A stretch of DNA of 64,000 nucleotides, taken from assembly GCA_024683775.1 (NCBI GenBank), contig GCA_024683775.1_4106.1. One strand, 5' to 3'. The DNA comes from a phage. Numbering within the stretch: position 1 is the first letter of the stretch; every line of letters begins with the position of its first letter. A model generated the notes under the pieces. That model was not told where the DNA came from, made no database searches, and was given only the letters and a program-made list of their open reading frames with translations. Shown in pieces: positions 5,488 to 20,461 of the stretch. The translations under genes were made by a program, and so were the position numbers.

Positions 5488-5492
5488 TTAAT

Positions 5493-5702
5493 ATGCTTAC
5501 TGTACAGGATAAGATCGACATCTTAAAGGTTAATATGTATGTGATTGATGCAGTACCTGGTAAAGTATTTGCATACGATGACAGTACTGTAAGCGATTTC
5601 TACTATAGCCAGGCCGTGGGGGATCTTTCTGTACAGTCGGTTATTGAAAACGTAGTTAATGCAGCGTATGAGCATTTACTTTCAAATAGTACTTGCAATT
5701 AG
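5493..5702 (+). CDS. hypothetical protein (69 aa)
   Basis: ORF 5 nt after previous stop; likely co-translated. Confidence 0.55.
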   Translation: MLTVQDKIDILKVNMYVIDAVPGKVFAYDDSTVSDFYYSQAVGDLSVQSVIENVVNAAYEHLLSNSTCN

Positions 5703-5771
5703 TTTTTAAACGCGTATAATGTTTTACATGAAGGGGAGAAATGATTCTCCCCACTAATTAAGGAATATGAA

Positions 5772-5918
5772 ATGAAAGCATCAAAAAAGAGTACTAACAA
5801 GAAAGCACGTTCAACCTTAGATGGGGTATTCCCTTTACGTTTCGTTGATGAAGTAGTTTCCTACCCGCCGGGCCTTACTCCTGAGATGGTAGAAAGTTTG
5901 CGTAAATCTAAAAAATAG
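5772..5918 (+). CDS. hypothetical small basic protein (48 aa)
   Basis: Short ORF not in track; promoter, hairpin and SD AAGGAA upstream. Confidence 0.5.
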   Translation: MKASKKSTNKKARSTLDGVFPLRFVDEVVSYPPGLTPEMVESLRKSKK

Positions 5919-5999
5919 TACTTGCAATTAGTTTTTAGTACTGTATAATGTTTTACATGAAGGGGAGAAATGATTCTCCCCAATAACAGGAGAAACAAA

Positions 6000-6152
6000 A
6001 TGAAACAATACAACGCTCGGTTTGATGTTACTATCGGTAACGGCAAAGGTCAATTCTCTTTCAGTACTCGCAAAAGTTATACAGAAAACTTCCTGCGTAA
6101 TTGTGCACTGACCGCCGCTCAAATTAAACATTATTTTCAGGCTAAAAAATGA
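6000..6152 (+). CDS. hypothetical protein (50 aa)
   Basis: ORF; promoter, hairpin, SD AGGAGA upstream; trimmed from track ORF 5970. Confidence 0.6.
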   Translation: MKQYNARFDVTIGNGKGQFSFSTRKSYTENFLRNCALTAAQIKHYFQAKK

Positions 6153-6238
6153 GATCATTAGCTTATTACAGTTCGGCCCTGGTCGGTGCATTGATCGCGG
6201 CGTTGTTAGTAACCTATCTATTCTTTATGGTGATTTAA
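6149..6238 (+). CDS. possible hydrophobic peptide (29 aa)
   Basis: ATGA overlap with previous stop; single hydrophobic helix; very short, so speculative. Confidence 0.3.
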   Translation: MRSLAYYSSALVGALIAALLVTYLFFMVI

Positions 6239-6382
6239 ATGAATCCAACAGGTTTAAACTATAAAAGTTGTTCGGCGTTTACGAAAGCAAATAAAGCGAA
6301 TGCACGTAAAGCGAAAGTACAGGAATACATCAAGCAAGGCATGACGCGAAAGGCGGCGATTCTAAAAGCTAAAAATAAATGA
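6239..6382 (+). CDS. hypothetical small basic protein (47 aa)
   Basis: Short ORF directly after previous stop; Lys/Ala-rich; terminator downstream. Confidence 0.4.
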   Translation: MNPTGLNYKSCSAFTKANKANARKAKVQEYIKQGMTRKAAILKAKNK

Positions 6383-6384
6383 AA

Positions 6385-6478
6385 AAAGTGGTTGACTCCG
6401 GTCAGCCATTTTGCTATTATATATTCATTGAGAGATAGCTCACTAGCCCACAGGGTGCATAAGTGTATCTATTATATG
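6385..6478. repeat. composite intergenic repeat, copy 1
   Basis: Terminator hairpin (6389-6414) overlapping TTGACT-17-TATTAT, then conserved box CCCACAGGGTGCATAAGTGTATCT; similar copies at about 10025, 13310, 16082. Confidence 0.7.
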
Positions 6479-6593
6479 AGTATTGAGTACTGAAAACTAT
6501 TTGATAAAAAGTACTTGCAAACTATCTCAATAAGCGTATAATGTTTTACATCGAAAGGGGAAACGGTTTCCCCTGGTAATAAGGAAACGAATC

Positions 6594-6935
6594 ATGACTA
6601 TCTCAATTGCTCAATCTAACTTTGAAAATGAAATCATCGCCCAGGCACTGCGTTTAAATGATGGTCGGGCCGAAATTAATTACGGTTTCAATTCAGGCGG
6701 TTGCGAAAACTATCAGTACTTTGTAACGGCTGATGGCGGTGTCCTGGGTATCAATACAGTTATTGTAAACATCCAAAAAATTAATTTCAATGATCCAGAC
6801 GATAGCCAGTTTTACATCACTGGCGTAGACGTGAACTATGAGGATGACTCACTAACTGATGATTACACTGGCGAGCGGTTAGAAAGTGCATACGGTGAAG
6901 ATGATTATCAGTCCGGTCCAGAAGATTTCGAATAA
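6594..6935 (+). CDS. hypothetical acidic protein (113 aa)
   Basis: ORF; promoter, hairpin GGGGAAACGGTTTCCCC and SD upstream. Confidence 0.7.
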   Translation: MTISIAQSNFENEIIAQALRLNDGRAEINYGFNSGGCENYQYFVTADGGVLGINTVIVNIQKINFNDPDDSQFYITGVDVNYEDDSLTDDYTGERLESAYGEDDYQSGPEDFE

Positions 6936-7028
6936 TATAAAAAAATAGTTTGACAATAGATTATAGTACTGTATAATGTTTTACATGAAGGGGAGAATAG
7001 TTCTCCCCACTAACAGAGAGAAAACAAA

Positions 7029-7241
7029 ATGGCTAATATCTGCACTGTACTGAAAAATGCAAAACAAGTTTTATTTTCTGATCACGATCATTTAAACAAG
7101 GATATTACTGGCGTTCGGAATATCAAAGATGTAAAAAGTGTTATGGGTATCTATTGCAATATGAAACGTGTCGGCACGTTCGGCGATAAAGTACTATACC
7201 AGGCAGGGGATTACAATTTTACACTGACTATCATTAACTAA
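7029..7241 (+). CDS. hypothetical protein (70 aa)
   Basis: ORF; promoter TTGACA...TATAAT, hairpin and SD upstream. Confidence 0.7.
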   Translation: MANICTVLKNAKQVLFSDHDHLNKDITGVRNIKDVKSVMGIYCNMKRVGTFGDKVLYQAGDYNFTLTIIN

Positions 7242-7324
7242 AAATATTATCACAGTACTATTGACATAGTTTTATAGTACTGACATAATAACTTTTATCA
7301 ACTACACTACTAAGGAATTAAAAA

Positions 7325-7504
7325 ATGGCTATCATCGCAAAAACTGAAATCGTTGGTCTGGATTCTATCATCATGACGTTTGAAGATCAAAAAGGTATGT
7401 ATGTAGTTTCATATGGTGATTATGTTCGGGAGTATGAAACGGTAGACGAAGCCTTTGAAAGTTATATTCGCCAGGTGAATAAAGCATACGACGACTACCG
7501 CTAA
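7325..7504 (+). CDS. hypothetical protein (59 aa)
   Basis: ORF not in track; type-III promoter and SD AAGGAA upstream. Confidence 0.55.
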   Translation: MAIIAKTEIVGLDSIIMTFEDQKGMYVVSYGDYVREYETVDEAFESYIRQVNKAYDDYR

Positions 7505-7594
7505 AATATATTACCAGTACTATTGACATTGTTTGATAGTACTGTATAATAAGTTTTATAAACAGTAGTTAACTTAACCTAAGAGAGAAATAAA

Positions 7595-7738
7595 ATGATC
7601 GCACTGGATTCATTCATCGACGCAGTACTGGCAAAAACTGGCGAGGATCTGACCGCAGAACAATACGCGATGATCGAGCAATGTCAGCAAAACGGTAAAT
7701 CGGTGAAAGATACTGTTAAGATTATCCGCAAGATGTAA
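7595..7738 (+). CDS. hypothetical protein (47 aa)
   Basis: ORF not in track; promoter and SD AAGAGAGA upstream; hairpin downstream. Confidence 0.5.
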   Translation: MIALDSFIDAVLAKTGEDLTAEQYAMIEQCQQNGKSVKDTVKIIRKM

Positions 7739-7759
7739 TATTATAGCCCACTGGTTAAC

Positions 7760-7767
7760 GCTGGTGG
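7760..7767 (+). other. Chi octamer GCTGGTGG
   Basis: Exact match inside the hairpin after CDS 7595. Confidence 0.8.
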
Positions 7768-7837
7768 GCTATAATCATTTACCCTATACAATGCCAGTAC
7801 TCAACCGTTTATCTCGTTAGAATGCGTTACAGGACGT

Positions 7838-8041
7838 TTGACAATGATTAGCATGAAATCAGTACAAAAACAAATAGAAACATTATCAAAAATTAAACGT
7901 AAACAGTACTCGTTAGAATATACAATCAATGGTAACTATCATCTAATGAAAGAGAATAATTTCATTGTCATTGATGAATCATTGCAAGTTATTAGTATAG
8001 TACTGAAAGCATTAATCAATGACAGAAAAAAATTAAAATAA
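7838..8041 (+). CDS. hypothetical protein (67 aa)
   Basis: ORF only; no clear promoter cassette or SD. Confidence 0.35.
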   Translation: MTMISMKSVQKQIETLSKIKRKQYSLEYTINGNYHLMKENNFIVIDESLQVISIVLKALINDRKKLK

Positions 8042-8268
8042 TCTATTGACAATATCCTCCAGTACTGGCATAATACTTACATCAAGACGAGAACGTCACT
8101 AACCCATAGGGTGCACAAATGTAACTATATAATATCGATCAATAAATGATCAAAAAGTACTGGATCAATTTAGCATAAGGCGTATAATTCTGATCAATTC
8201 TTGATCAAAGGCAATATACGCAGTTGAATTTATATAGACAGTACAAAGGCGTTACTATCCGTGGTAAT

Positions 8269-8276
8269 GCTGGTGG
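8269..8276 (+). other. Chi octamer GCTGGTGG
   Basis: Exact match read in sequence. Confidence 0.8.
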
Positions 8277-8369
8277 ATATGTAGTATCATATGGTTTGAA
8301 TAAGATAAACACTAGTAGTATTATTGTAGCATTACAGTACTATAGTATTTTTATAATGAGGTTAAAATA

Positions 8370-8627
8370 ATGGCAGTAGGATACGCGAAAGACGGGGCCG
8401 AACAAGACGAGATTCACGCAGTGATTCAGGCAGCCGTTAACCACGCTAGAAAGCAAATTAACGCACAAAGAGAATCACTGGTACATTGCCTCGACTGCGG
8501 CGATAAAATCCCTGAGAATCGACGCCAGGCCGTTATAGGGTGCATGTATTGTATTACTTGCCAGGAGGATCATGATAGTACTTTTAAAAGAGATCCGCGT
8601 AATTGTTGGCATAGATCTATGAGATAA
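8370..8627 (+). CDS. TraR/DksA-family C4 zinc-finger protein (85 aa)
   Basis: CxxC-17-CxxC spacing (CLDCG...CMYCITC) near the C-terminus as in TraR/DksA proteins; SD TGAGG upstream. Confidence 0.7.
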   Translation: MAVGYAKDGAEQDEIHAVIQAAVNHARKQINAQRESLVHCLDCGDKIPENRRQAVIGCMYCITCQEDHDSTFKRDPRNCWHRSMR

Positions 8628-8690
8628 AAAGTATTGACAGTACTGAAAGATAGTGTATAATGTTTTATATCTTAACTGAGGATAGTAATC

Positions 8691-9047
8691 ATGGGAATAC
8701 AACATATCACGCGTACTACTGACAATGGCGAGATCACTGGTTATCAGGTACAGGGCAAAGTAGCACAATTGCAGTACTGGTTTGTTAAACGTGGAATCAT
8801 TGCACCGGATCTTGATTATGACCGTGTAGCGTTTATTGATTCTCTTTATGTTGATCCTGATAGTCGGGGCAATGGTGAAGGTAACGAATTAATGAATGCC
8901 TTTATTGATGCCGCCGATGATTCAGATTGTATCATCTTAGAATGCGATACGGGAGAAGATAACGCCTTTAATCTTAAAGAATGGTACGAAGGTTTCGGAT
9001 TCGAGGTACTGATCGATAGTGAATATCCTATCATGATTTTATCATAG
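8691..9047 (+). CDS. GNAT-family N-acetyltransferase-like protein (118 aa)
   Basis: Motif LYVDPDSRGNGEGNELMNAFI resembles the GNAT acetyl-CoA binding motif A; promoter and SD upstream. Confidence 0.6.
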   Translation: MGIQHITRTTDNGEITGYQVQGKVAQLQYWFVKRGIIAPDLDYDRVAFIDSLYVDPDSRGNGEGNELMNAFIDAADDSDCIILECDTGEDNAFNLKEWYEGFGFEVLIDSEYPIMILS

Positions 9048-9125
9048 TACTTGCATTTAGTTTTCAGTACTGTTATAGTACTTGCATCAAGGGGAAACAT
9101 CTTCCCCTACTAAGAGGAAATAAAA

Positions 9126-9314
9126 ATGGAAAACTTATCAAGTATTTTAGTACAAGATGATTTCGGTAATCCTGGAAGTGCTATCATTGTTCGGGGCAAT
9201 AAAGCAACGTTTGTTATTGCTGGTGGACCCGTACAGCGTAGCATTAAAAATAATGCTGTTACCATTAATAATGTACGCTATCGCTTAGATAAAGAATTAA
9301 TTCATAAACTGTAA
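9126..9314 (+). CDS. hypothetical protein (62 aa)
   Basis: ORF; hairpin GGGGAAACATCTTCCCC and SD AAGAGGAAA upstream; contains a Chi octamer. Confidence 0.65.
   Translation: MENLSSILVQDDFGNPGSAIIVRGNKATFVIAGGPVQRSIKNNAVTINNVRYRLDKELIHKL
9219..9226 (+). other. Chi octamer GCTGGTGG
   Basis: Exact match read in sequence. Confidence 0.8.
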
Positions 9315-9399
9315 AAAAGTACTGGACAATAGATTATAGTACTGTATAATAGTTTACATGAAGGGGAGAAATGATTCTCCCCACTAAGAGGAAAGAAAA

Positions 9400-9612
9400 A
9401 TGCAAGGTCAACTAATCGTTCGTAAATGGTCTGATACTAACGAAAAACCGTGGGATGTACAATACATCGCCCCAAATGGTGAATCCAGATATCAACCAGG
9501 TGTAACGCATAGTACTGAGCAATTCGCCGCCGCTCATCGCGAACGTCTGTTACAATCAATGCAGCACGGTTCCGGTGAAAAATTCATTCAGGATCATTGG
9601 CTGAAAGATTAA
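9400..9612 (+). CDS. hypothetical protein (70 aa)
   Basis: ORF; promoter, hairpin GGGGAGAAATGATTCTCCCC and SD upstream. Confidence 0.7.
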   Translation: MQGQLIVRKWSDTNEKPWDVQYIAPNGESRYQPGVTHSTEQFAAAHRERLLQSMQHGSGEKFIQDHWLKD

Positions 9613-9698
9613 AAAGTACTTGCACAGTACTGAATAAAGTGTATAATGTTTTATATCGGAAGGGGAATAGTTCCCCTCCTAACAAAGAGGAAAGTATA

Positions 9699-9872
9699 AT
9701 GGTCCAGGTAGAATTAACAGTACTGAAAGATCTGTTTTATCGGATTGGTACTACTGGCGAATATCCGAAGGGTGATAATGCAAAACTTTACGTATCACTC
9801 GACTTATGGCAACGCGAACAATTAGCAACGGCCTGGCGTAAAGGCAAAGCAGATAGCGAGGTGAAAGCATGA
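9699..9872 (+). CDS. hypothetical protein (57 aa)
   Basis: ORF; promoter, hairpin and SD AAGAGGAAA upstream; trimmed from track ORF 9597. Confidence 0.6.
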   Translation: MVQVELTVLKDLFYRIGTTGEYPKGDNAKLYVSLDLWQREQLATAWRKGKADSEVKA

Positions 9873-10018
9873 AAGAATTCTTATTTGAAGTAGTGTTTCA
9901 AGGTGTCGGTAATAACCAACTGATTCGATCAAGTGGTTATAATGTTAACCAGGCATGGAATAACATTAAACAAATGTACCCGAACGCTATCACATATCGC
10001 AACCCGAAAGAAGTTTAA
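9869..10018 (+). CDS. hypothetical protein (49 aa)
   Basis: ORF not in track; ATGA overlap with previous stop. Confidence 0.45.
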   Translation: MKEFLFEVVFQGVGNNQLIRSSGYNVNQAWNNIKQMYPNAITYRNPKEV

Positions 10019-10024
10019 AAATAA

Positions 10025-10112
10025 TTGAAAAAGGGATTGACTCCGGTCAGTCCCTTTGCTATTATATACGCATAGAAACAAATTAGCCCACCGGGTGCAT
10101 AAATGTATCTAT
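10025..10112. repeat. composite intergenic repeat, copy 2
   Basis: Terminator hairpin AAAGGGATTGAC-TCCG-GTCAGTCCCTTT overlapping TTGACT-17-TATTAT, then conserved box CCCACCGGGTGCATAAATGTATCT. Confidence 0.7.
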
Positions 10113-10117
10113 TGTTT

Positions 10118-10125
10118 GCTGGTGG
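10118..10125 (+). other. Chi octamer GCTGGTGG
   Basis: Exact match just downstream of repeat copy 2. Confidence 0.8.
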
Positions 10126-10166
10126 CTAGTACTATCAAGTACTGAAAACTATTTTTAAAAAAGTAC

Positions 10167-10194
10167 TTGCAAAGTATCACGATAAGCGTATAAT
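10167..10194 (+). promoter_or_regulatory. sigma70-like promoter (TTGCAA-16-TATAAT)
   Basis: Hexamers read directly; upstream promoter of a duplicated double-promoter leader. Confidence 0.6.
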
Positions 10195-10282
10195 GTTTTA
10201 CATCAGGACGGGGAACGAAATAAGTAACCCCGTTAAGTAGTCCAGGAGTAAGACATACGAAAAACTCCCCTGATAAAATAGT

Positions 10283-10310
10283 TTGACAATAGAAAGTAAA
10301 CGAGTATAAT
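10283..10310 (+). promoter_or_regulatory. sigma70-like promoter (TTGACA-16-TATAAT)
   Basis: Consensus hexamers; about 30 nt upstream of CDS 10344. Confidence 0.65.
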
Positions 10311-10343
10311 ACTTACATCAACCACTGATAAGGAAACATTAAA

Positions 10344-10619
10344 ATGCGGACTTTACTTACAGCTAACGAAATCGAGCAAGTACTGACTACTAATCTGGAA
10401 CAATGGAAACGTGAAGCAGATATCCAGGCGGTTCAATGCCTTAACGATAAGTTAACGCCAGATGACTTAAGCACGATTGTTGATCCACAATTTTATGAAG
10501 ATATTCACGACACGTCTTTAAGCGTCGAGGATGTACTTGATAAGCACTACATTGATACTGATTTACATGTTTACGGTCGTAAAAACTTTATCACTATTCA
10601 CGACATTTACAATACTTAA
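10344..10619 (+). CDS. hypothetical acidic protein (91 aa)
   Basis: ORF; double-promoter leader and SD AAGGAA upstream. Confidence 0.7.
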   Translation: MRTLLTANEIEQVLTTNLEQWKREADIQAVQCLNDKLTPDDLSTIVDPQFYEDIHDTSLSVEDVLDKHYIDTDLHVYGRKNFITIHDIYNT

Positions 10620-10707
10620 GTATTGACAAAGTATCTTAGTACTGTATAATAGTTTACATCAAGTGAGGGGAAACGGTTCCCCTCCTAACAAAGAGAGAGA
10701 AATTAAA

Positions 10708-10890
10708 ATGGCTAAGTGCACTATCTGTAAGAAAGAAATCGTATTAGTTCCAAGTGCCCGTGAACGTGCCGCTCGGTTCGGTGGCAAAGCGTCAGACTAT
10801 ACAAAAATGTTTACTGCCCATGCAGCTTGTCAAGTAGCAAAACGTTCACAAGAAAGCGTAGAATTAATGCGTAAACTTTCCAAAAAATAA
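10708..10890 (+). CDS. hypothetical protein (60 aa, CxxC plus HxxC)
   Basis: ORF; promoter, hairpin and SD upstream; trimmed from track ORF 10663. Confidence 0.65.
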   Translation: MAKCTICKKEIVLVPSARERAARFGGKASDYTKMFTAHAACQVAKRSQESVELMRKLSKK

Positions 10891-10977
10891 GTATTGACAA
10901 AGTATCTTAGTACTGTATAATAGTTTACATCAAGCGAGGGGAATGGTTCCCCTCCTAACAAAGAGAGAGAAATAAAA

Positions 10978-11301
10978 ATGGCTATGATCCTTACCCAGAA
11001 AGTAGAACTGAAAATTGTAACCTCCTTTGACATTAAAGTTAATCGGTGGACTGATAGCCACGGCAATACTTACCACTCCTGCTACGTGTCCGCATTGATT
11101 GGTGATCGCTGGGAAGACCTGGGACACGAAACCTTTACATACGGTTACGGCACACAAGGTGAGTACACGGGTTTAGAAATCATTAAGGAAACTGTAATAG
11201 GTTTCAACCCGAAAGAGAAAGTACTACACAGAATTGAGAAAGAGATCAACAAAGAAATTACAGTTCGCTACTACGATGTAAAACGTAAGAAAGACATGTA
11301 A
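10978..11301 (+). CDS. hypothetical protein (107 aa), paralog of CDS 4490
   Basis: ORF; upstream cassette almost identical to that of CDS 10708; shares motifs with CDS 4490. Confidence 0.7.
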   Translation: MAMILTQKVELKIVTSFDIKVNRWTDSHGNTYHSCYVSALIGDRWEDLGHETFTYGYGTQGEYTGLEIIKETVIGFNPKEKVLHRIEKEINKEITVRYYDVKRKKDM

Positions 11302-11400
11302 TAGAATCCATTTAAAGTACTATTTGACATTGCCCAGATAGTACTTTATAATAGACTCTAACTTGTAGTACTAATTAACTTAACTAATAGGATGTACACC

Positions 11401-11796
11401 ATGATTACTAAATTCTTCGCTACCCGTGAACAAGCTCGCATCGTTGCCCGTGAGGAAGGTGAAACATTTAAAGACATGGGTAAAGATTCTCCTACTGGTA
11501 AACGCTGGGCGGTACAGTTCAAAGAGATCTCTGATATTGTGAATTCACCTGAGCCTGTACTTACAGCAGCAGAACTAAAGCAAGCTCAAGAACTGGCTGA
11601 AGTACTGAACGCTCAAGATGACTTCTTGAAAGGTTCTGATATTGAAGTTACAGTTAACGCAAATGCATGGACTCACGCGGATCACCTGGCAAACCTTAAG
11701 CGTCCAAGTGAACTGATTCGCAACCAGAAAGAGATCCGACACGACCGTAAGGGTAATCGTGTAACAGTATACAGTAAACGCCGCCAGGTTATCTAA
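11401..11796 (+). CDS. hypothetical protein (131 aa)
   Basis: ORF; promoter TTGACA...TATAAT upstream; start chosen at second ATG after AGGA. Confidence 0.65.
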   Translation: MITKFFATREQARIVAREEGETFKDMGKDSPTGKRWAVQFKEISDIVNSPEPVLTAAELKQAQELAEVLNAQDDFLKGSDIEVTVNANAWTHADHLANLKRPSELIRNQKEIRHDRKGNRVTVYSKRRQVI

Positions 11797-11818
11797 TAAC
11801 TTGCAGTACTAACAACAC

Positions 11819-11843
11819 GGCGGGATCAGTTCCCGCCTTTTTT
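11819..11843 (+). terminator. rho-independent terminator
   Basis: Hairpin GGCGGGA-TCAG-TTCCCGCC followed by TTTTTT. Confidence 0.75.
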
Positions 11844-11857
11844 ATAGGACAAACAAA

Positions 11858-12112
11858 ATGATTAAGGTTCAACTATATAAAGATAACATCTTACGGGTAC
11901 ACTATAAAGCACCTCAGAGAATCATCACAAAGGCCGTACAGCTTGCTAATGAGTTTATTAATGGTAACCTATTACCTAGGAAGTTAAGCAACGGGAAACT
12001 GCGTGTAATCGACGTGGACACTAACAACAGGATAGTAATCGAGAACACAGGAAAGATAAACCTTTATGAGCATCAACAATACAATAAGAAAATAAAACTA
12101 ATATCACGTTGA
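11858..12112 (+). CDS. hypothetical protein (84 aa)
   Basis: ORF; SD-like sequence upstream. Confidence 0.6.
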   Translation: MIKVQLYKDNILRVHYKAPQRIITKAVQLANEFINGNLLPRKLSNGKLRVIDVDTNNRIVIENTGKINLYEHQQYNKKIKLISR

Positions 12113-12165
12113 CAGTACTCAATTGTTTTAGTACTATGTACACATACCAACACGGGAGAAACAAA

Positions 12166-12384
12166 ATGAAATTATCTAAAATCGAAAAGAAAACTATTGA
12201 TGAAGCAGTTAAGCACGGTTATACCTTTCGTAATGATTCACATTTTACCAATTTTCAACAAGGGTATCGTACTATTAAAAAACTAATTGACAAAGGTTTA
12301 TTAGTTGAAGTCAATAACGGTAACGGTATCGAGTATCAACCAACACAAGACGCATTTTATTTTAAGAAATATAATATTATCTAA
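12166..12384 (+). CDS. hypothetical protein (72 aa)
   Basis: ORF; promoter and SD GGGAGAAA upstream; trimmed from track ORF 12109. Confidence 0.65.
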   Translation: MKLSKIEKKTIDEAVKHGYTFRNDSHFTNFQQGYRTIKKLIDKGLLVEVNNGNGIEYQPTQDAFYFKKYNII

Positions 12385-12442
12385 TTGACAGTACTCAATT
12401 GTTTTAGTATTATGTACACATACCAACACGGGGGGAAACAAA

Positions 12443-12685
12443 ATGATTACTTTAGAAAAACGTATCAAAGAAACTACATCGCTGGTGGAACTGTTAACAG
12501 TACTCAAATGTAAAACAACACCATTCAGCACGCCGGACTTTATTAATATGGTTGATGTTAATGGTCGCTATCGTATCACGGTCGAACAAGGAGCGGCGAA
12601 AGTATTCAGTACTAAAAACACTAAGGAAGTGATCCACGCCGTTAATGTTAAAAAAGTAGTTGCCATTGATAGTAAAGTACTGTAA
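12443..12685 (+). CDS. hypothetical protein (80 aa)
   Basis: ORF; upstream about 60 bp is a near-identical copy of the region upstream of CDS 12166. Confidence 0.65.
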   Translation: MITLEKRIKETTSLVELLTVLKCKTTPFSTPDFINMVDVNGRYRITVEQGAAKVFSTKNTKEVIHAVNVKKVVAIDSKVL

Positions 12686-12716
12686 TATAGTTTCATTAAC
12701 TCAAGGAGAACATGCA

Positions 12717-13301
12717 ATGCGTAAATATACTAAATTCATCCGTACACTGTCAGAAATGGAAACCAACAAAGAGATCCTTTCAGCTTGTCGGTTAGCTGGC
12801 CTGGAGATCATCGGTGCTGGTTCTTCCCGTATAGTATTCGCTTTAAATGATCGGTTAGTGATTAAGGTCGCGAATTGTGATGCGGGTGTCGAACAAAATG
12901 AAACTGAATGTAAGGTATGGAATTTTTTAGACTATGACCGCCCTCAGTTGAAACAGTACTTTGCAAAGGTGCATATGCATTTATGCGATCCTGATAATAT
13001 GTTTATCGTTATGGATCGGTTGAGTACTGCAAGCAAAGGCAGTGTGAAGCACGTAAACGCGTGCAATGAATTAAAGTACAATATTAAACGTAATGCAATC
13101 GAACGCCAGCACCGCTTTGCTGATGCACTACAACACGTTGATGATACATTATCAACACTAACGATAAGAGATATCAGAAAACAGAATATCGGCCAGGATC
13201 GTAATGGACTTATTAAAGTACTTGATTACGGTTTAACCAGCAATATCTGGAATCAGTACTATAAAAAGCGTGATGTGGCAGCAAGTAAGGTAACACGATA
13301 A
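12717..13301 (+). CDS. protein-kinase-like protein (194 aa)
   Basis: Gly-rich loop IGAGSSRIVF, VIKVA lysine, catalytic-loop-like RDIRKQNIG and DFG-like VLDYG in the expected order; SD AAGGAGAA upstream; trimmed from TTG-start track ORF 12660. Confidence 0.6.
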   Translation: MRKYTKFIRTLSEMETNKEILSACRLAGLEIIGAGSSRIVFALNDRLVIKVANCDAGVEQNETECKVWNFLDYDRPQLKQYFAKVHMHLCDPDNMFIVMDRLSTASKGSVKHVNACNELKYNIKRNAIERQHRFADALQHVDDTLSTLTIRDIRKQNIGQDRNGLIKVLDYGLTSNIWNQYYKKRDVAASKVTR

Positions 13302-13309
13302 AAAAGATT

Positions 13310-13400
13310 AAAAAAGGGATTGACTCCGGTCAGTCCCTTTGCTATTATATATCCATTGAGAGATAACTCACTGACCCATAGGGTGCGGAAGTGTATCTAT
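13310..13400. repeat. composite intergenic repeat, copy 3
   Basis: Terminator hairpin overlapping TTGACT-17-TATTAT, then box CCCATAGGGTGCGGAAGTGTATCT. Confidence 0.7.
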
Positions 13401-13525
13401 TATATAAGTATTCAGTACTGAAAACTATTTGATAAAAAGTACTTGCAAACTATCTCAATGAGCGTATAATGTTTTATATCGAGAGGGGGAAATGGTTCTC
13501 CCTGGTACTAAAAGGAATCAAGACG

Positions 13526-13747
13526 ATGACTACTATGACCTGCGTTCACGCTTCAAATCTTCTGAATGATGCAGCATTTAAAGCAGGTGAAGAATATCAA
13601 TGCTATCGGGATGAAAATAAAAAAGTTTTCGTCGTTGATGCTAACGGTTTCCATATTGAATTGCAATCCGGCTTCACTGGTTTAAATGGTAAATCAGTAT
13701 GGGGCGTTAATGATGATAATGGTCTTTATCACTTTATCCGTAATTAA
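13526..13747 (+). CDS. hypothetical protein (73 aa)
   Basis: ORF; promoter, hairpin and SD AAAGGAA upstream; trimmed from track ORF 13469. Confidence 0.65.
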   Translation: MTTMTCVHASNLLNDAAFKAGEEYQCYRDENKKVFVVDANGFHIELQSGFTGLNGKSVWGVNDDNGLYHFIRN

Positions 13748-13831
13748 GTATTTGACAAAGTATATCAGTACTGTATAATAGTTTACATCAAGGGGAGAAT
13801 AGTTCTCCCCGATACTAAAAGGAATAAAATC

Positions 13832-14239
13832 ATGACTACTACCAATCAAGCTCGGAACATCACCAACGATAAAAATCATGCTGCAATGGTCGCTGGATAC
13901 ATTGAAGCTATGCAATTCAGTACTGTATACAATGAGAACGGCGATTACCTGGAAGATTATGAATTATCAGAGCAAGCCCATCAAGCGGCAGTGATTGCAT
14001 GTTCACGTTTCCTTGCTGTACATGGTGAAGATATGGAAACAGTACAAAAACACCATAATCCTGATTATACTTATAGTCATGCAGGTCATGATCTCTTTCT
14101 TACTCGCGAAGGTCACGGCACTGGTTTTTGGGATCGTGGTTTAGGTCACTATGGCGATGTATTCACGAAGTACTGCGAAGAAATCAACGTTTGCGATCCC
14201 TATGTAGGCGATGATAACTTAATCTATATGGGCGAATAA
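13832..14239 (+). CDS. hypothetical protein (135 aa)
   Basis: ORF; promoter TTGACA...TATAAT, hairpin GGGGAGAATAGTTCTCCCC, SD upstream. Confidence 0.7.
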   Translation: MTTTNQARNITNDKNHAAMVAGYIEAMQFSTVYNENGDYLEDYELSEQAHQAAVIACSRFLAVHGEDMETVQKHHNPDYTYSHAGHDLFLTREGHGTGFWDRGLGHYGDVFTKYCEEINVCDPYVGDDNLIYMGE

Positions 14240-14328
14240 AAGTATTTGACAAAGTATATCAGTACTGTATAATAGTTTACATCAAGGGGAGAATAGTTCT
14301 CCCCACACCAATAAAAGGAAACAAAATT

Positions 14329-14601
14329 ATGTCCAGCTACTCCGCTACTATGATCATTAAAGATATGAACGGTAATCCTACTTCTGCTGGTGGATCATTT
14401 GGAAATATTAACTTAGATGGGCGGTTATCCATGCAATCAGCCATCGATGCAGCGAAAGAAGTTTTTAAGAATGAATGTACTGTTAGTAAGCTGGATTATA
14501 TGGGTTTCGCTATCGAGAAAACTACTCGTTTTGTGAACTACAAAAATCCACTGATGATTGATACTAACCTGAAAGCTAACGAAGTGGGGTACTTATTATG
14601 A
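14329..14601 (+). CDS. hypothetical protein (90 aa)
   Basis: ORF; upstream cassette duplicates the one upstream of CDS 13832; contains a Chi octamer. Confidence 0.7.
   Translation: MSSYSATMIIKDMNGNPTSAGGSFGNINLDGRLSMQSAIDAAKEVFKNECTVSKLDYMGFAIEKTTRFVNYKNPLMIDTNLKANEVGYLL
14385..14392 (+). other. Chi octamer GCTGGTGG
   Basis: Exact match read in sequence. Confidence 0.8.
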
Positions 14602-14789
14602 CAGTAGAAGAAGTAAAAAAAGTACTGGCAGTACTACGATATCATAATCATTGCAAGGTGAAGAATGATCCTGATTATCTTGATTCATCCCTGGAGGAAG
14701 ACACCTTGAACGCTATAAGCCATATGCAGACATTAGCAAAGCGTATGACTGAAAAGAACATGCCGGACTATATCGGAAATAAAATTTAA
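14598..14789 (+). CDS. hypothetical protein (63 aa)
   Basis: ORF; ATGA overlap with previous stop. Confidence 0.6.
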   Translation: MTVEEVKKVLAVLRYHNHCKVKNDPDYLDSSLEEDTLNAISHMQTLAKRMTEKNMPDYIGNKI

Positions 14790-14876
14790 AAAGTACTTGC
14801 ATTGTAGTTAGATTAACGTATAATGTTTTATATCGAGAGGGGGAAATGGTTTCCCCTCAAGTCCAGGAGATACACC

Positions 14877-15140
14877 ATGAACACTATCGAAATCACTATC
14901 AATGCACACGTATACGACAACGTAGTACTGCAAACTACTATGACCGCCAATGATACCAGTACTTTGCGGAATACTGTTATTAGTGCCGTATGTGCCGCTA
15001 TCGGTGATGTCGCCCTGGAAAATGCAAAACACGTAAACGATGGTTTCACTATGTGCAAACGTGATAACGCAAAACATATCATCGTGGAAGGTTACGGCGG
15101 TGTAGAATTTAATGTTTATATGAAAAAAGTACTTGCATAA
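14877..15140 (+). CDS. hypothetical protein (87 aa)
   Basis: ORF; promoter, hairpin, SD CAGGAGA upstream; trimmed from track ORF 14823. Confidence 0.7.
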   Translation: MNTIEITINAHVYDNVVLQTTMTANDTSTLRNTVISAVCAAIGDVALENAKHVNDGFTMCKRDNAKHIIVEGYGGVEFNVYMKKVLA

Positions 15141-15207
15141 TAACTAAAACAAAGTATAATGTTTTGCATAGGGGGAGATATCCTCCCCCACTAAAAGGAG
15201 TAATAAA

Positions 15208-15432
15208 ATGGCTAACTTTGATGAACTGATGCGGGAAGTAGCTAACCTGGCAGAAGAGAAGAAATCATTCGATTCTATCTATAACACCGCTCACCGTGAT
15301 TCAGTACTGGCATGTAACCAGGATCAAAAAGATGAACTAATCGCCACCTATCATGAAGCATGGAAGTACTACCGACAATGGGAGAAAGAAGAAAGTGAGT
15401 CTACCATTGACGGCCTCAATAATCTAATCTAA
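15208..15432 (+). CDS. hypothetical protein (74 aa)
   Basis: ORF; promoter, hairpin GGGGGAGATATCCTCCCCC and SD upstream. Confidence 0.7.
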   Translation: MANFDELMREVANLAEEKKSFDSIYNTAHRDSVLACNQDQKDELIATYHEAWKYYRQWEKEESESTIDGLNNLI

Positions 15433-15508
15433 AAGTTTTATTTCAGTACTATTGACATAGCTTGATAGTACTGATGTAATAACTTTACTAACTACAAGGG
15501 GAAACATA

Positions 15509-15766
15509 ATGGATCAGTTCACACAATATCGGGTAAATCCTCAAGCTATGGCCTACGTAGAAGACCATAAAACGTTACCAGTACTGCAACCAGTTAAAGG
15601 CCATATCTATCGTGCAATGTCGTGGTGTACGGCCCAGGATGGCTATAAAACCGTAGCCGTGGGTATGTATTGCGGTGATGGTGAATGGTTTGATCCAAAT
15701 AATCCGGTATCCATTGACAGTACTGAAAAAATGAAATGGGCCGACTACATCGAAGATATTTCATAA
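15509..15766 (+). CDS. hypothetical protein (85 aa)
   Basis: ORF; type-III promoter and SD upstream. Confidence 0.65.
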   Translation: MDQFTQYRVNPQAMAYVEDHKTLPVLQPVKGHIYRAMSWCTAQDGYKTVAVGMYCGDGEWFDPNNPVSIDSTEKMKWADYIEDIS

Positions 15767-15856
15767 AAACTATTTGACAGTACTAACCAGTAATGTATAA
15801 TGTTTTACATAGAGCGGGGGAATAGTTCTCCCGCCAATAGTTTGGAGTAAAACATT

Positions 15857-16057
15857 ATGTCTATCGCTATCGCCCTGGTTGAAGTACTGAAAGAAGCTAA
15901 AGCCAACCAGATCGACGTAAAGATCCAGGAACTACAAAACGGCTTAATCGGCTGTACTTGTACCGCTGGTGGAGCGGCAGACTATCGAGAACACGAATCA
16001 CTCGAATCACTGGTTCGGTATCTTACCATGATCGTTGATGATTGGAGAATCATCTAA
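15857..16057 (+). CDS. hypothetical protein (66 aa)
   Basis: ORF; promoter, hairpin and SD upstream; contains a Chi octamer. Confidence 0.65.
   Translation: MSIAIALVEVLKEAKANQIDVKIQELQNGLIGCTCTAGGAADYREHESLESLVRYLTMIVDDWRII
15965..15972 (+). other. Chi octamer GCTGGTGG
   Basis: Exact match read in sequence. Confidence 0.8.
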
Positions 16058-16081
16058 CAAAAAAGAATAAAAAAAGGGATT

Positions 16082-16154
16082 GACTCCGGTCAGTCCTTTT
16101 GCTATTATATACGCATAGACAAAAACTAGCCCACAGGGTGCATAGGTGTATCCA
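16082..16154. repeat. composite intergenic repeat, copy 4
   Basis: Terminator hairpin overlapping TTGACT-17-TATTAT, then box CCCACAGGGTGCATAGGTGTATCC. Confidence 0.7.
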
Positions 16155-16187
16155 AAATATATAGTTAATAACGGTGAGTAACTATCT

Positions 16188-16195
16188 GCTGGTGG
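16188..16195 (+). other. Chi octamer GCTGGTGG
   Basis: Exact match just downstream of repeat copy 4. Confidence 0.8.
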
Positions 16196-16302
16196 AACTA
16201 AAACTATTAATAAAAAAGTATTGACAAAGTATATCAGTACTGCAATAATGTATCTCGTAGGGCGGCAATGGTGCGACGGCCCACAAAGTTAGGAGATTCA
16301 AA

Positions 16303-16638
16303 ATGACTACTTCAATCGCTATCGTTAAAGCTTTCATCCGTACTAATGTTTCCTCTGTATTCATCGACGGCCTCGACCGTAACGTAGAATACTCAATCAT
16401 TATCGCACAAACGGCAAACGGTTCTCGGTACATCCTGAATGATAGTGAAGCAAATCACTACTACTTCACTAAAGCCACTGGCTTTAAACGCATCGATGCT
16501 GATGTAGTATACGCTAAGATGAATAAGCTGGTAGACAAGATTAACGCGAAAGGTACTATCGATTTACAGTACTGGACCGAAACCGATCCAGAGTATGGAT
16601 CTCACCGCTACCTGAATCCAGGTATTAAAATGAAATAG
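16303..16638 (+). CDS. hypothetical protein (111 aa)
   Basis: ORF; promoter TTGACA...(C)AATAAT and SD TAGGAGA upstream. Confidence 0.7.
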   Translation: MTTSIAIVKAFIRTNVSSVFIDGLDRNVEYSIIIAQTANGSRYILNDSEANHYYFTKATGFKRIDADVVYAKMNKLVDKINAKGTIDLQYWTETDPEYGSHRYLNPGIKMK

Positions 16639-16723
16639 TACTTGCATAGTACTTAGATTCATGTATAATGTTTTACATAGAGAGGGGGAAATGGTTCTCC
16701 CTCCTAAATTAAGGAGTTTTATC

Positions 16724-17125
16724 ATGACCTTCTCAATCACTTCCTTCGCTGACGTTTTAGTACTGGCCCGGACTTTTGGTAAAGCTGGCCTTGAACACGC
16801 TGTAAGTAATGGTCATATGCACCCTGAATATTGCCGCATCATTGGAAGCTGCAAACGTTGGGCAGTGTCCCGTAATATTGAGATTGAAAACTTCAATGAC
16901 GGCAACAACGAATATACAGTTGATGCAGTATTCGAAGCCGTTGATCTCGGCGGTATCTATAACACTAACCTGAATGATGTGCGTATCGTTCGCACGGGGT
17001 TCGGTGCTTATGATGTATCTATCCGTGAAGCTATGGACAAGGGATACATTAGCAAGGACCAGTTAGCTTACATCATGCAGCAAACTAAGGAGCGTAATGA
17101 AGCACGTACTATCTTAGGGCTGTAA
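16724..17125 (+). CDS. hypothetical protein (133 aa)
   Basis: ORF; promoter, hairpin and SD TAAGGAG upstream; trimmed from track ORF 16661. Confidence 0.7.
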   Translation: MTFSITSFADVLVLARTFGKAGLEHAVSNGHMHPEYCRIIGSCKRWAVSRNIEIENFNDGNNEYTVDAVFEAVDLGGIYNTNLNDVRIVRTGFGAYDVSIREAMDKGYISKDQLAYIMQQTKERNEARTILGL

Positions 17126-17193
17126 GCAATACACATCACCAAACATCATAGGCCGCTCTCTAGCGGCCTTAACTATATCAGGAGTACATACAC

Positions 17194-17403
17194 ATGATCT
17201 ATACAGTATATAGCGTTCTAGGCACTATTGCAGGCGTACATGATAACGTCGATGGTGCTATGCGTACAGTACTGCAACAGGTTCCACTAAAGCCTAAGAC
17301 CATTAAGCAGATGACAGCACGACTAACCAGGGCGACGGCTGGCGTGGAAGTATGGCAGGACTATGGGGATACACAGATAATCGTAAGCGTAACGAAGGAT
17401 TAA
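17194..17403 (+). CDS. hypothetical protein (69 aa)
   Basis: ORF; hairpin AGGCCGCT-CTCT-AGCGGCCT then SD CAGGAG upstream. Confidence 0.65.
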   Translation: MIYTVYSVLGTIAGVHDNVDGAMRTVLQQVPLKPKTIKQMTARLTRATAGVEVWQDYGDTQIIVSVTKD

Positions 17404-17594
17404 TGCGTAAAAGGATTTAGTACTGAATCATAAAAAAGTCAAGGCATTTTTAAACTTCAGCGTTAAAAAAATGCATAGGTAATCCCTTGACTTTTATGAA
17501 TAAAAAGGGATTGGACTATGGCAAAATGCGTAGGGGGCTAAAGGGCGGGTAACCTTAGCGACTTCGATAAAGGGGTATTACTTATAAAATGTTA

Positions 17595-17652: not shown

Positions 17653-17850
17653 ATGCGTATTTTAACTCAAGAAGAGCACAACCACACACTCATATCCAAC
17701 ATGGCATATATCCTACATATGTCACATATCCGTGGTATTGCATATAAGCGTGAATTGGTTATGAAACTTTTCATAGGAACTAACTATCAAGAAAAGTATA
17801 TCGAACTATACTTACAAGAATTACGAAGGGACATAAAAGGTAGACTATGA
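17653..17850 (+). CDS. family A small protein (65 aa)
   Basis: ORF; SD AATGGAG upstream; C-terminal motif GTNYQEKYIELYL. Confidence 0.7.
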   Translation: MRILTQEEHNHTLISNMAYILHMSHIRGIAYKRELVMKLFIGTNYQEKYIELYLQELRRDIKGRL

Positions 17851-18047
17851 AAATGCGTATTTTAAATAAAGAAGATTATCAAGAACTGTTACGTAAAAAC
17901 ATGGTAAAGATTTATAACACAGACACAAACTTAGAACGAATTGAGTTATACCTTTTGATTACATTGGGAACAAGCTATCAGGGAAGATGGGTGATTCAAT
18001 ATATGGATGCATTGAAAAATGAAATATTATCCACGAGGAAACAATGA
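17847..18047 (+). CDS. family A small protein (66 aa)
   Basis: Family A motif LGTSYQ; ATGA overlap with neighbour. Confidence 0.7.
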   Translation: MKMRILNKEDYQELLRKNMVKIYNTDTNLERIELYLLITLGTSYQGRWVIQYMDALKNEILSTRKQ

Positions 18048-18253
18048 AAACTATAACACGAACCCAATCATACGGTCTTATCTTGAGATACATGGACTTA
18101 ATGTTGGATATCAGAAAAGACCTTCCTAAAACTGCAATTGAAGTTGCAAGAGCAGAGATCCGCATGTTGGCTGTACTGAACACAAACCATCAGGAAGAGT
18201 ATGTTGACGATTGGATTCGATTTTTAATAGAAGATATTAAGAGGAAACTATGA
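18044..18253 (+). CDS. family A small protein (69 aa)
   Basis: Family A motif LNTNHQEEY; ATGA overlap. Confidence 0.7.
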   Translation: MKTITRTQSYGLILRYMDLMLDIRKDLPKTAIEVARAEIRMLAVLNTNHQEEYVDDWIRFLIEDIKRKL

Positions 18254-18462
18254 TTTTTTTAACACCAGAAGAATATAAGATACGTTTTGTTTCTGTCCAG
18301 AATAAAATCTTAATTATATACAATTCAAATGCAGACCTTAACTTATCAAGGGTATTAGAAAAAGATTTACTTATGGGTGCATTTTTGGATACAGACTTTC
18401 AGGTGTATTATGTAGGGGAATACTTAATTGCACTCCAGAATTACATTAAGAGTAAACTATGA
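18250..18462 (+). CDS. family A small protein (70 aa)
   Basis: Family A motif LDTDFQ; ATGA overlap. Confidence 0.7.
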   Translation: MIFLTPEEYKIRFVSVQNKILIIYNSNADLNLSRVLEKDLLMGAFLDTDFQVYYVGEYLIALQNYIKSKL

Positions 18463-18671
18463 ATAGCATTAACTCAAATCTATATACCGAACGCGTCGCT
18501 GCAAGACAACTTGAAATTCTCATAGTATATGAAGAGACTGATGATTTGAACTTAGCATTAGTATTGGAAAATGATATACTATTGGGTGCATTCCTCGGCA
18601 CAGATTATCAGGAGCACTTCTTGAATGAGTATATAATTGCACTCCAGAAATACATTAAGAGCAAACTATGA
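18459..18671 (+). CDS. family A small protein (70 aa)
   Basis: Family A motif LGTDYQEHF; ATGA overlap; close paralog of 18250. Confidence 0.7.
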   Translation: MNSINSNLYTERVAARQLEILIVYEETDDLNLALVLENDILLGAFLGTDYQEHFLNEYIIALQKYIKSKL

Positions 18672-18886
18672 AACATTTAAGTAATTCCGAGAAGAATAAA
18701 ATTATCATTGCTGCAATAAACAAATATTTTACACTTCCTCACACAGAAGGTTTATGTGTAAGGGAACACAGGATAAACACCACCGATATACGCATGATGG
18801 CTGTACTGGGGACGAACTTTCAGGAAGAGTATGTTGTTGCACACATAGTTGCCCTCACTGATCTAATAAGGGACAAATGTAAATGA
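18668..18886 (+). CDS. family A small protein (72 aa)
   Basis: Family A motif LGTNFQEEY; ATGA overlap. Confidence 0.7.
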   Translation: MKHLSNSEKNKIIIAAINKYFTLPHTEGLCVREHRINTTDIRMMAVLGTNFQEEYVVAHIVALTDLIRDKCK

Positions 18887-19140
18887 AACACTTAACACTA
18901 GATGAATATGAAACTATAGTCCGTAAACTAACCCCTATAGCAAGGATAGTCTACGATGACCCCAGCCTTACATGGAACCAAATGCGAGCTAAAGTTAATG
19001 AGCTATGGTTGCTGTACTTTATGGGGACTCAATATCAAGATAAGTTTTGCACAGAATATGTCGAACAATTAATGAATGTTATACAGGATAAACTAGATGA
19101 TTATTGGCTCACAAAACATGAAGACTTTATCAGGAGTTGA
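18883..19140 (+). CDS. family A small protein (85 aa)
   Basis: Family A motif MGTQYQDKF; ATGA overlap; C-terminal extension overlaps next gene. Confidence 0.65.
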   Translation: MKHLTLDEYETIVRKLTPIARIVYDDPSLTWNQMRAKVNELWLLYFMGTQYQDKFCTEYVEQLMNVIQDKLDDYWLTKHEDFIRS

Positions 19141-19369
19141 GTATCAAACTGCCCTATTCTCTTTAATCCATACCCTTAGAAAAAACAATGCCTTACATGG
19201 TGCACCTGAAGTGGATGTTATCAACGGTGAACTTTATCTTATGAAATTCATTGGAACAAACTATCAAGATCTGTTCATTCAACGATACTTATCAGCATTA
19301 AGAAACCAAATCCAATATAAAACCATCAAGGCCAAAAAAGAATGGAATAAACAATGCGACACAGACTAA
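19118..19369 (+). CDS. family A small protein (83 aa)
   Basis: Family A motif IGTNYQDLF; start trimmed to MKTLSGVEY. Confidence 0.65.
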   Translation: MKTLSGVEYQTALFSLIHTLRKNNALHGAPEVDVINGELYLMKFIGTNYQDLFIQRYLSALRNQIQYKTIKAKKEWNKQCDTD

Positions 19370-19605
19370 ATCACAAAATGTATTGTAAACTATTACAGAC
19401 ACTGGCACAGAAACACTATGACACGGTATCTGGAATATTACCCTATGATATCATGCGTTTACTTCACTGTGAGGCCGAGATGCTTGTACTGATGACAGGC
19501 ACTGATAAAAAAGCAATTGTCAAATCAATAGATATGTTCATCGAAGCACAATGTCAACACATTAGAACCGAGATATGGAGGCGAGAGAATGATAACCCTA
19601 AATGA
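19354..19605 (+). CDS. family A-like small protein, divergent (83 aa)
   Basis: Same size and position in the array; motif degraded to MTGTDKK. Confidence 0.6.
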   Translation: MRHRLNHKMYCKLLQTLAQKHYDTVSGILPYDIMRLLHCEAEMLVLMTGTDKKAIVKSIDMFIEAQCQHIRTEIWRRENDNPK

Positions 19606-19804
19606 GTTTCAGTATCATTGGAGATTACAAGCTATAAGAAGGAAAGTTGTTAGTATTTCTTTAGACAAGTCTATTGCACAAGAGGACAAATGTGTTATAA
19701 TAGCTGAAATGAAGTTGGGTGCTTTCGTAGGGACAAACTATCAAAACATCTACACTGACGTATTGTTAAGTGCCTTACGTAACAAGGTGATATCAAAAGA
19801 ATGA
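19589..19804 (+). CDS. family A small protein (71 aa)
   Basis: Family A motif VGTNYQNIY; overlap with neighbours. Confidence 0.7.
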   Translation: MITLNEFQYHWRLQAIRRKVVSISLDKSIAQEDKCVIIAEMKLGAFVGTNYQNIYTDVLLSALRNKVISKE

Positions 19805-20019
19805 GAAAATTACAAGGCTTTGAATACATCAGACTCCTGAAAACATGCACCAGCAGAAGGAAAATCTTATCAAGCAACAAGAGCATCCCTGCCAACCTAA
19901 AACATGCAATGATAGCTGAACTCTATGTAGAAGCACTCATAGGGACAAACTATCAACAAATGTATATAGACATGTGGGTTGATGCATTAGTCAAGGAGAT
20001 CAAAAGTAAATGCAAATGA
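19801..20019 (+). CDS. family A small protein (72 aa)
   Basis: Family A motif IGTNYQQMY; ATGA overlap. Confidence 0.7.
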   Translation: MRKLQGFEYIRLLKTCTSRRKILSSNKSIPANLKHAMIAELYVEALIGTNYQQMYIDMWVDALVKEIKSKCK

Positions 20020-20228
20020 TTAATTTAAGTAAAGATGAATATTATGATCGTCTTGCAAAAACTTATCCAGCACGTAACGCCGTTTATAATAGTAACATTA
20101 TTGAACGCTCAAAGAAGTTGATTGTAGTAAATGAGATTAAGATGCTTTCAGTCTTAGGAACAAACTATCAAGAGAATGCTGTACTGTTGTTAATTGATGC
20201 CCTCAAGAGAGAGATACAAAGTAAATGA
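20010..20228 (+). CDS. family A small protein (72 aa)
   Basis: Family A motif LGTNYQENA; overlap. Confidence 0.7.
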   Translation: MQMINLSKDEYYDRLAKTYPARNAVYNSNIIERSKKLIVVNEIKMLSVLGTNYQENAVLLLIDALKREIQSK

Positions 20229-20461
20229 TTCATTTATCTTACCATGATTATCAAAAACGTTTAAATGCATCAAGGGATATAAGGATTCAAATCTTCAATA
20301 ACAAAAAATTGAAACCTGATAACAGAAGAATCAAAATGATAGAAGCAGAGTTATGCAACTTCCTGGGGACGAACTATCAGGCAGGTAAGGTAAAAAACTA
20401 TCTTAGAGAACTAATGAATTGTATCGAAAATAAATGCGATGCTTTGGAGAATAAAAAATGA
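20225..20461 (+). CDS. family A small protein (78 aa)
   Basis: Family A motif LGTNYQAGK; ATGA overlap. Confidence 0.7.
   Translation: MIHLSYHDYQKRLNASRDIRIQIFNNKKLKPDNRRIKMIEAELCNFLGTNYQAGKVKNYLRELMNCIENKCDALENKK

Follow-up and report, generated by a model that had tools for sequence, protein, structure and literature searches.

A stretch of phage DNA of 64,000 nucleotides (nt; contig GCA_024683775.1_4106.1), referred to here as the window, carries at positions 12717-13301 of the plus strand a genuine gene whose product of 194 amino acids (aa) consists of Hanks kinase subdomains I-VII only. Membership of this product in the protein-kinase-like superfamily is well supported, within a family that is distant from every solved structure. 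It is considered somewhat more likely than not that the protein is an early minimal protein kinase, constitutively active or activated by a partner, of low intrinsic selectivity and acting on host proteins; early timing, enzymatic activity and protein substrates are inferred, and the biological role is proposed by analogy alone. The kinase prediction itself is already known from GenBank labels and one paper (PMC11895373).

The open reading frame (ORF) runs from an ATG at 12717 to a TAA at 13299-13301, and the Shine-Dalgarno sequence 7 nt 5' of the ATG forms a strong ribosome-binding site. In a program-made list of ORFs the frame had been extended to a TTG at 12660; the ATG at 12717 is the start in all annotated orthologues, and the upstream ORF stops at 12685. 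The gene is under purifying selection, with a ratio of nonsynonymous to synonymous substitution rates (dN/dS) of 0.03-0.18 among orthologues, and residues 4-188 of the protein match the PHROG 4301 profile (E=2e-41). Start and stop codons, ribosome-binding site, orthologue starts and dN/dS together bear out the product that an earlier reading, made from the sequence only, had placed here.

12717-13301, plus strand, stop codon included: coding sequence of the minimal protein-kinase-like protein (PHROG 4301); from the ORF, motifs, model and dN/dS.
12703-12709, plus strand: Shine-Dalgarno sequence AAGGAGA; read directly.

Kinase motifs and predicted fold

The sequence-only reading had pointed to a Gly-rich loop, a VIK lysine, a D-x4-N catalytic loop and a DYG motif. 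All four were found in this order and with kinase-like spacing, and they are mostly invariant in homologues.

12813-12836, plus strand: Gly-rich ATP-binding loop, G33-A-G35-S-S-R38-I-V40; from alignments of homologues.
12858-12866, plus strand: V48-I49-K50 with the beta-3 lysine, K50 being invariant; from alignments.
12906-12908, plus strand: E64, the helix-C glutamate, invariant and inside the family motif G57-x-x-Q60-N61-x-x-E64; from alignments and the model.
13170-13187, plus strand: catalytic loop D152-I-R-K-Q-N157, without a conserved arginine before D152; from sequence and alignments.
13224-13232, plus strand: D170-Y-G172, the DFG-equivalent metal-binding motif, after which 22 residues remain; from sequence, alignments and the model.

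Relative to D152, the Asn stands at D+5 and the aspartate of DYG at D+18, a spacing equal to that of D166, N171 and D184 in protein kinase A (PKA). The Gly-rich loop has an invariant Arg (R38) in place of the third Gly of the canonical GxGxxG, and the lack of a conserved arginine before D152 makes the protein a non-RD kinase. All 14 close homologues (39-96% identity) share G33, G35, S36, R38, K50, E64, D152, D170 and G172, and 13 of them have N157. When the family is widened to 55 homologues, down to ~20% identity, R38, K50, G57, Q60, E64, D170 and G172 are still invariant, and at least 90% of the sequences retain S36, S37, N61, D152 and G159.

Taken singly, the similarity searches are weak: Pfam Pkinase is the top match of the protein at E=0.0041, and the best match in a single-sequence search of the PDB has an E-value of 0.005. 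This could indicate chance motifs in an unrelated small phage protein with no kinase fold. However, such an explanation is effectively excluded, given that all 19 of the weak single-sequence PDB matches are protein kinases with alignments in register, that nearly all profile matches are kinases too, and that the motif residues are the invariant columns of the family alignment. Furthermore, an independent search is recorded in the GenBank note on the orthologue of Klebsiella phage Muenster, which reads 'HHpred 6J5T_M 99.9% probability' and refers to a plant kinase chain. Profile A2, built on the 55-sequence alignment, gave 102 PDB matches at E<0.01, and all 60 among the matches listed are kinases, the best being MKK4 (E=4.9e-5). 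With the narrower profile A1, the alignment to MKK7 covers residues 29-183, starting at the Gly-rich loop and running past the DFG motif; two haemoglobin chains are among its 60 matches listed, neither with a significant matched stretch. Pkinase is also the only recurrent Pfam family among the members, found in 6 of the 55 at E<0.01 with a best E-value of 5.7e-6. The expectation that kinases would head the profile searches therefore holds for Pfam, for the single-sequence PDB search and for both profiles. Among the PADLOC models, a weak generic similarity to PD-T4-6 alone was found (E=7e-4).

An AlphaFold2 model computed from the 55-sequence alignment is confident, with a predicted local distance difference test score (pLDDT) of 95.1 and a predicted template modelling score (pTM) of 0.91; a model from the 14 close sequences alone (pLDDT 55.7) was not used. 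The model begins with two N-terminal helices (residues 4-26), which precede beta 1-3 and a long helix C; more strands come next, then helices D and E, and the catalytic loop leads through beta 7-8 and the DYG motif to one short helix (175-182), with no extra domain. The lobe arrangement of a kinase, which the sequence-only reading had expected, thus appears to be present in part: the model has a kinase N-terminal lobe (N-lobe) and the catalytic half of a C-terminal lobe (C-lobe), and the rest of the C-lobe is absent. OSR1, MEK1, Lpg2603, Rio2, APH(2'') and SAICAR synthetase are among the Foldseek matches in the PDB. Against viral models, Foldseek matched many small phage proteins, including models of T7-like phage proteins annotated 'protein kinase' whose query-normalised template modelling (TM) score of 0.51-0.57 is above that of every PDB kinase.

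A truncated C-lobe and its probable consequences

The end of the chain 22 residues after DYG is the same across the family in the homologue alignments. Hanks subdomains VIII-XI are absent, with no activation segment, no APE motif and none of helices F-I, and helix 175-182 is the sole element that follows DYG. As judged from the conserved residues and the model, the G33-x-G35-S-S-R38 loop would bind ATP together with the K50-E64 pair, N157 and D170 would hold Mg2+, and D152 would be the catalytic base. Given that there is neither an activation segment nor a conserved arginine before D152, activation-loop phosphorylation cannot regulate the enzyme, which would either be active constitutively or need a binding partner to switch it on. 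The absence of the P+1 loop and of the peptide-docking helices F-G would leave an open cleft, and the specificity is therefore likely to be low or partner-dependent. By analogy, host proteins would probably be phosphorylated during takeover or to blunt defences, beside a second kinase of the type of T7 gp0.7 (T7K).

A number of points weigh against an early minimal protein kinase. The Pfam Pkinase (PF00069) match scores 17 bits, under the gathering cut-off of 31.7, a search of NCBIfam gave no match for the protein, and PHROG 4301 carries the label 'unknown function'. The fold matches to PDB kinases are moderate (TM 0.40-0.45, with ~125 of the 194 residues aligned). N157 is not conserved across the wider 55-sequence family, and the Lys at D+2 that is typical of Ser/Thr kinases is variable in the homologue alignments. 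Ser, Thr and Tyr together make up 17.0% of the terminal-repeat ORFs (1-17500) versus 19.2% in 17500-64000 (Mann-Whitney p=0.03), and 13.9% of the kinase-like protein itself; this depletion was considered as a sign of a promiscuous kinase and was rejected as weak and confounded by the second kinase. Finally, with all peptide-docking elements absent, a non-protein substrate becomes possible.

In that case the protein would phosphorylate a small molecule, nucleotide, sugar, lipid or RNA via the same ATP-binding core, as do aminoglycoside phosphotransferases (APH), Kdo/lipopolysaccharide (LPS) kinases and the archaeal tRNA 2'-kinase ArkI. APH(2'')-IIa is the top Foldseek match in the PDB and SAICAR synthetase is among the top fold matches; the part of the C-lobe that binds peptides is absent; and in Pectobacterium phage CBB two tandem paralogues lie within a tRNA gene cluster. 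Nevertheless, a non-protein substrate is judged unlikely: the profiles match protein kinases and not the APH or choline-kinase families, Pfam APH is found in 0 of the 55 members, and the chain likewise has no helical substrate-binding subdomain at its C-terminus, the defining feature of APH and choline kinases. Moreover, T7-like protein kinases are among the closest structural matches in viral proteins, and there are no tRNA genes in the window, of which both the Rfam and the tRNA scans were empty.

The truncated C-lobe also raises the possibility of a pseudokinase, or of a regulator with ATP-binding or ATPase function, which would act by binding a host protein and not by phosphotransfer. This would be consistent with the unusual Gly-rich loop, in which the third Gly is replaced, with the variation of the catalytic-loop Asn and the D+2 Lys in the wider family, and with the precedent of NleH, whose binding to RPS3 is independent of its kinase activity (PMC12756638). 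Two observations make it quite improbable. Pseudokinases have usually lost one or more of the catalytic residues, whereas in the 55 sequences the beta-3 Lys, the helix-C Glu and the Asp of DxG never vary and at least 90% retain the catalytic Asp; and the gene is under purifying selection. A minimal protein kinase acting on host proteins is therefore the preferred reading; if active, it would be a candidate early host-takeover or anti-defence enzyme and a natural test of the smallest kinase fold that is sufficient for catalysis.

Terminal repeat and expression context

The sequence-only reading had set the gene among early genes, and this is supported indirectly by its location in a terminal repeat and by the distribution of promoters. 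T7 gene 0.7 is an early gene, and the kinase-like gene would be one too. The orthologue of phage vB_Ec-M-J lies inside an annotated direct terminal repeat of 21.5 kb, and alignment of related records places the inner repeat boundary near 17.5 kb of the window and the start of the window ~3 kb from the genome end. The kinase-like gene is ~4.8 kb inside this roughly 21-kb direct terminal repeat. Packaged DNA would therefore hold two copies of the gene, and records that include both repeats give two matches to it. In Muenster the orthologue is likewise within the terminal repeat, and the repeat of phage fEgEco12 has been confirmed by restriction digestion (PMC13070987).

The window contains 13 perfect TTGACA-N16-18-TATAAT sigma-70 promoters, all on the plus strand, where 0.19 would be expected by chance, and 11 of them fall in the first 16 kb (198-15801). 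The elements nearest to the kinase-like gene are as follows.

12385-12413, plus strand: sigma-70-type promoter-like site TTGACA-17-TATTAT, 11 of 12 matches, in a 68-nt module that is duplicated at 12099-12166.
12443-12685, plus strand: 80-aa ORF immediately before the kinase-like gene, with which it is probably co-transcribed; it matches neither Pfam nor PHROG.
13313-13340, plus strand: 12-bp terminator-like hairpin, located 12 nt downstream of the TAA; the promoter-like site that follows has its -35 element within reach of the stem, which overlaps it.

The site at 12385-12413 probably drives a two-gene unit ending with the kinase-like gene, and the likely transcript would run from this promoter through the 80-aa ORF and the kinase-like gene to the hairpin. 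The host sigma-70 RNA polymerase would probably transcribe the gene right after DNA entry, and such early transcription is a reasonable inference. Phages Munch and EJP2 have weak homologues of the 80-aa ORF immediately upstream of the kinase.

The hairpin belongs to a 93-nt module present in three copies (10017-10109, 13300-13392 and 16060-16152) of 67-89% identity. Each consists of the 12-bp hairpin (AAAGGGATTGAC...GTCAGTCCCTTT) with a -35-like TTGACT in its stem, after which come TATTAT and another small hairpin; the module has a fold z-score of -4.5 and no Rfam match. The 11 promoters at 198-15801 are arranged in two repeated promoter-plus-leader modules, each of which ends with a leader hairpin of the GGGGAA-N-TTCCCC type before the ribosome-binding site and yields spurious repeated ORFs such as 'MFYIERGKWF'. 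Across the window, 86 of the 87 ORFs of at least 100 aa are on the plus strand.

Upstream of the two-gene unit, an 84-aa ORF at 11858-12112 has a ParE-like toxin domain (PF24732, E=6.4e-11, above the cut-off) and no obvious antitoxin was called. In a metagenomic relative (L009 7745-7996) a homologue of it stands immediately before the kinase, and others are near the kinase in Hallingskeid and in Muenster, the latter with the annotation YafQ-like. A functional link between the two genes was considered and rejected: the pairing recurs in four lineages, and since the flanking genes recur likewise it looks like plain synteny. Past the repeat boundary, 17653-23594 together with 24282-24497 and 25430-25880 holds a head-to-tail array of ~30 paralogous genes of 65-93 aa, with overlapping stops and starts, an [LF]-G-T-[ND]-[YF]-Q-[EDQ] motif and 25-56% mutual identity; they match PHROG 4148 (unknown function) and no Pfam family.

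Distribution and prior annotation

The window is from an Asteriusvirus jumbo coliphage. The protein is 100% identical to its counterpart in Escherichia phage EC.P1, and over the 2.5 kb around the gene the identity to jumbo coliphages of this genus with genomes of 350-385 kb, such as vB_Ec-M-J, fEgEco12, G17, Sharanji and 121Q, is 90-96%. A tblastn search found the gene in 60 phage records, and those listed are all jumbo phages of 310-386 kb: Asteriusvirus, Alcyoneusvirus (RaK2, K64-1 and Muenster), Munch-like Salmonella phages, Yersinia phages fHe-Yen9-03/04, Erwinia phage Hallingskeid and CBB. The identity is 98.5% to Sharanji gp063 and 36-40% to the Munch, Muenster and RaK2 proteins. The annotated orthologues are listed below.

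Sharanji gp063, WNN14351.1
Munch gp046, AZU97990.1
Muenster gp043, QOE32215.1
fEgEco12 g044
RaK2 H6X4G3

A protein kinase label is already on the records of Munch, Muenster, ph0011, fEgEco12 and the Turkey phages, worded 'putative protein kinase' in those of Munch, Muenster and fEgEco12; many other orthologue records still read 'hypothetical protein', and the names PRP4 and PknA are automatic over-annotations. The Sharanji orthologue has been described as 'another protein kinase ... function is unknown' (PMC11895373, 2025). Because GenBank and one paper already contain the prediction, the discovery is a modest one, and what is added here is the truncated architecture, a clear distinction from T7K, a view of how broad the family is, and the context of terminal repeat and promoters.

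A search of IMG/VR with the 14-sequence alignment found phage 121Q alone. In an exhaustive hidden Markov model search, 2,070 representatives of clusters matched at E<=1e-3, most of them 180-280 aa in length. Distant structural relatives are scattered over many phages in the Foldseek search of viral models, and ten distant family members have no informative names in the sources. Some relatives are of unusual composition. The metagenomic proteins P0021 (693 aa; L011 1051-3132) and P0023 (923 aa) have three or four tandem minimal kinase domains, the gene for P0021 having a metallophosphatase gene as its neighbour on contigs of 150-185 kb, and further relatives form part of proteins of 2,130 and 3,248 aa. 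The tandem paralogues of phage CBB are the adjacent gp535 and gp534 (L014 3374-4483), of 194 and 168 aa.

It is tentatively suggested, as a broader proposal that remains doubtful, that the protein is the coliphage representative of a large, mostly viral or metagenomic lineage of half-size kinases (GxGSSR ... GxxQNxxE ... DYG) of at least 2,070 clusters at 50% identity, separate from T7K, and that it sits in the first-entering repeat for an immediate, unregulated burst of phosphorylation of broad specificity that would disable defences. If this is true, jumbo phages would deploy two unrelated minimal kinases, and the fusions of three or four copies would point to a strategy of dosage or multivalency.

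Comparison with known systems

The comparison with T7 gp0.7 made by the sequence-only reading holds for a generic kinase core and does not extend to sequence homology. The protein was rejected as a homologue of T7 gp0.7, the hhalign probability being 7.6% to T7 gp0.7 itself and 1.2% to Sharanji gp144. Both T7K and the 194-aa protein are phage kinase cores without a canonical C-lobe; however, they belong to different PHROGs, T7K has a DPV motif where the 194-aa protein has a canonical DYG, and the C-terminal shut-off/DNA-binding domain of T7K is missing from the 194-aa protein. In a 2026 study of T7K, the DPV in place of DFG was described, together with diverged jumbophage homologues in G17 and Munch that have a DP(V)-type motif and are also without the shut-off domain (PMC13645617). 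By their motif, these homologues would be of the gp144 type and not the DYG gene. Sharanji gp144 (WNN14432.1, 224 aa; 28183-28857 of the Sharanji locus) has an ITDP motif and 27% identity to T7 gp0.7 (E=4e-8); it matched 770 phage records, and most of those listed are T7-like phages of ~40 kb with the annotation protein kinase. It ends 19 residues after the DP motif and is thus a second precedent for a half-kinase. Two kinases have also been reported for Sharanji, one of which, WNN14432.1, is the T7K homologue (PMC11895373). Asteriusviruses have both the DYG gene and the T7K-type gene, at different loci, and within the 64-kb window neither a copy of the T7K-type kinase nor a paralogue of the DYG gene was found. 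Rak2-like jumbo phages would therefore possess a second, unrelated minimal kinase in the repeat region with the strongest host-type promoters. Given that T7K has been shown to phosphorylate most host proteins and to disarm several defence systems (PMC13645617), other phage kinases gain in value, and this broad activity serves as a working model for the 194-aa protein.

Within the Rak2-like jumbo phages the orthologues are the same gene, of ~194 aa, with nothing substantive that differs. Beyond them, the closest likeness in architecture is to OspG of Shigella and NleH1/2 of pathogenic E. coli, which are likewise limited to subdomains I-VII and are without activation-loop control. OspG has a length of ~190-200 aa, near the size of the phage protein. 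Despite lacking subdomains VIII-XI, OspG and NleH are still active, and OspG autophosphorylates (PMC12756638). In contrast to the phage protein, they are type III effectors in eukaryotic cells and are activated by E2~ubiquitin, and the likeness is one of architecture only. Rio, Bud32, ArkI and the aminoglycoside phosphotransferases are compact protein-kinase-like folds that are also without an activation loop. The sequence profiles of the 194-aa family gave no match to these four families (Pfam over the 55 members, and the PDB), and they differ from the phage protein in having extra C-terminal helices or substrate-binding subdomains, which are absent from the 194-aa chain.
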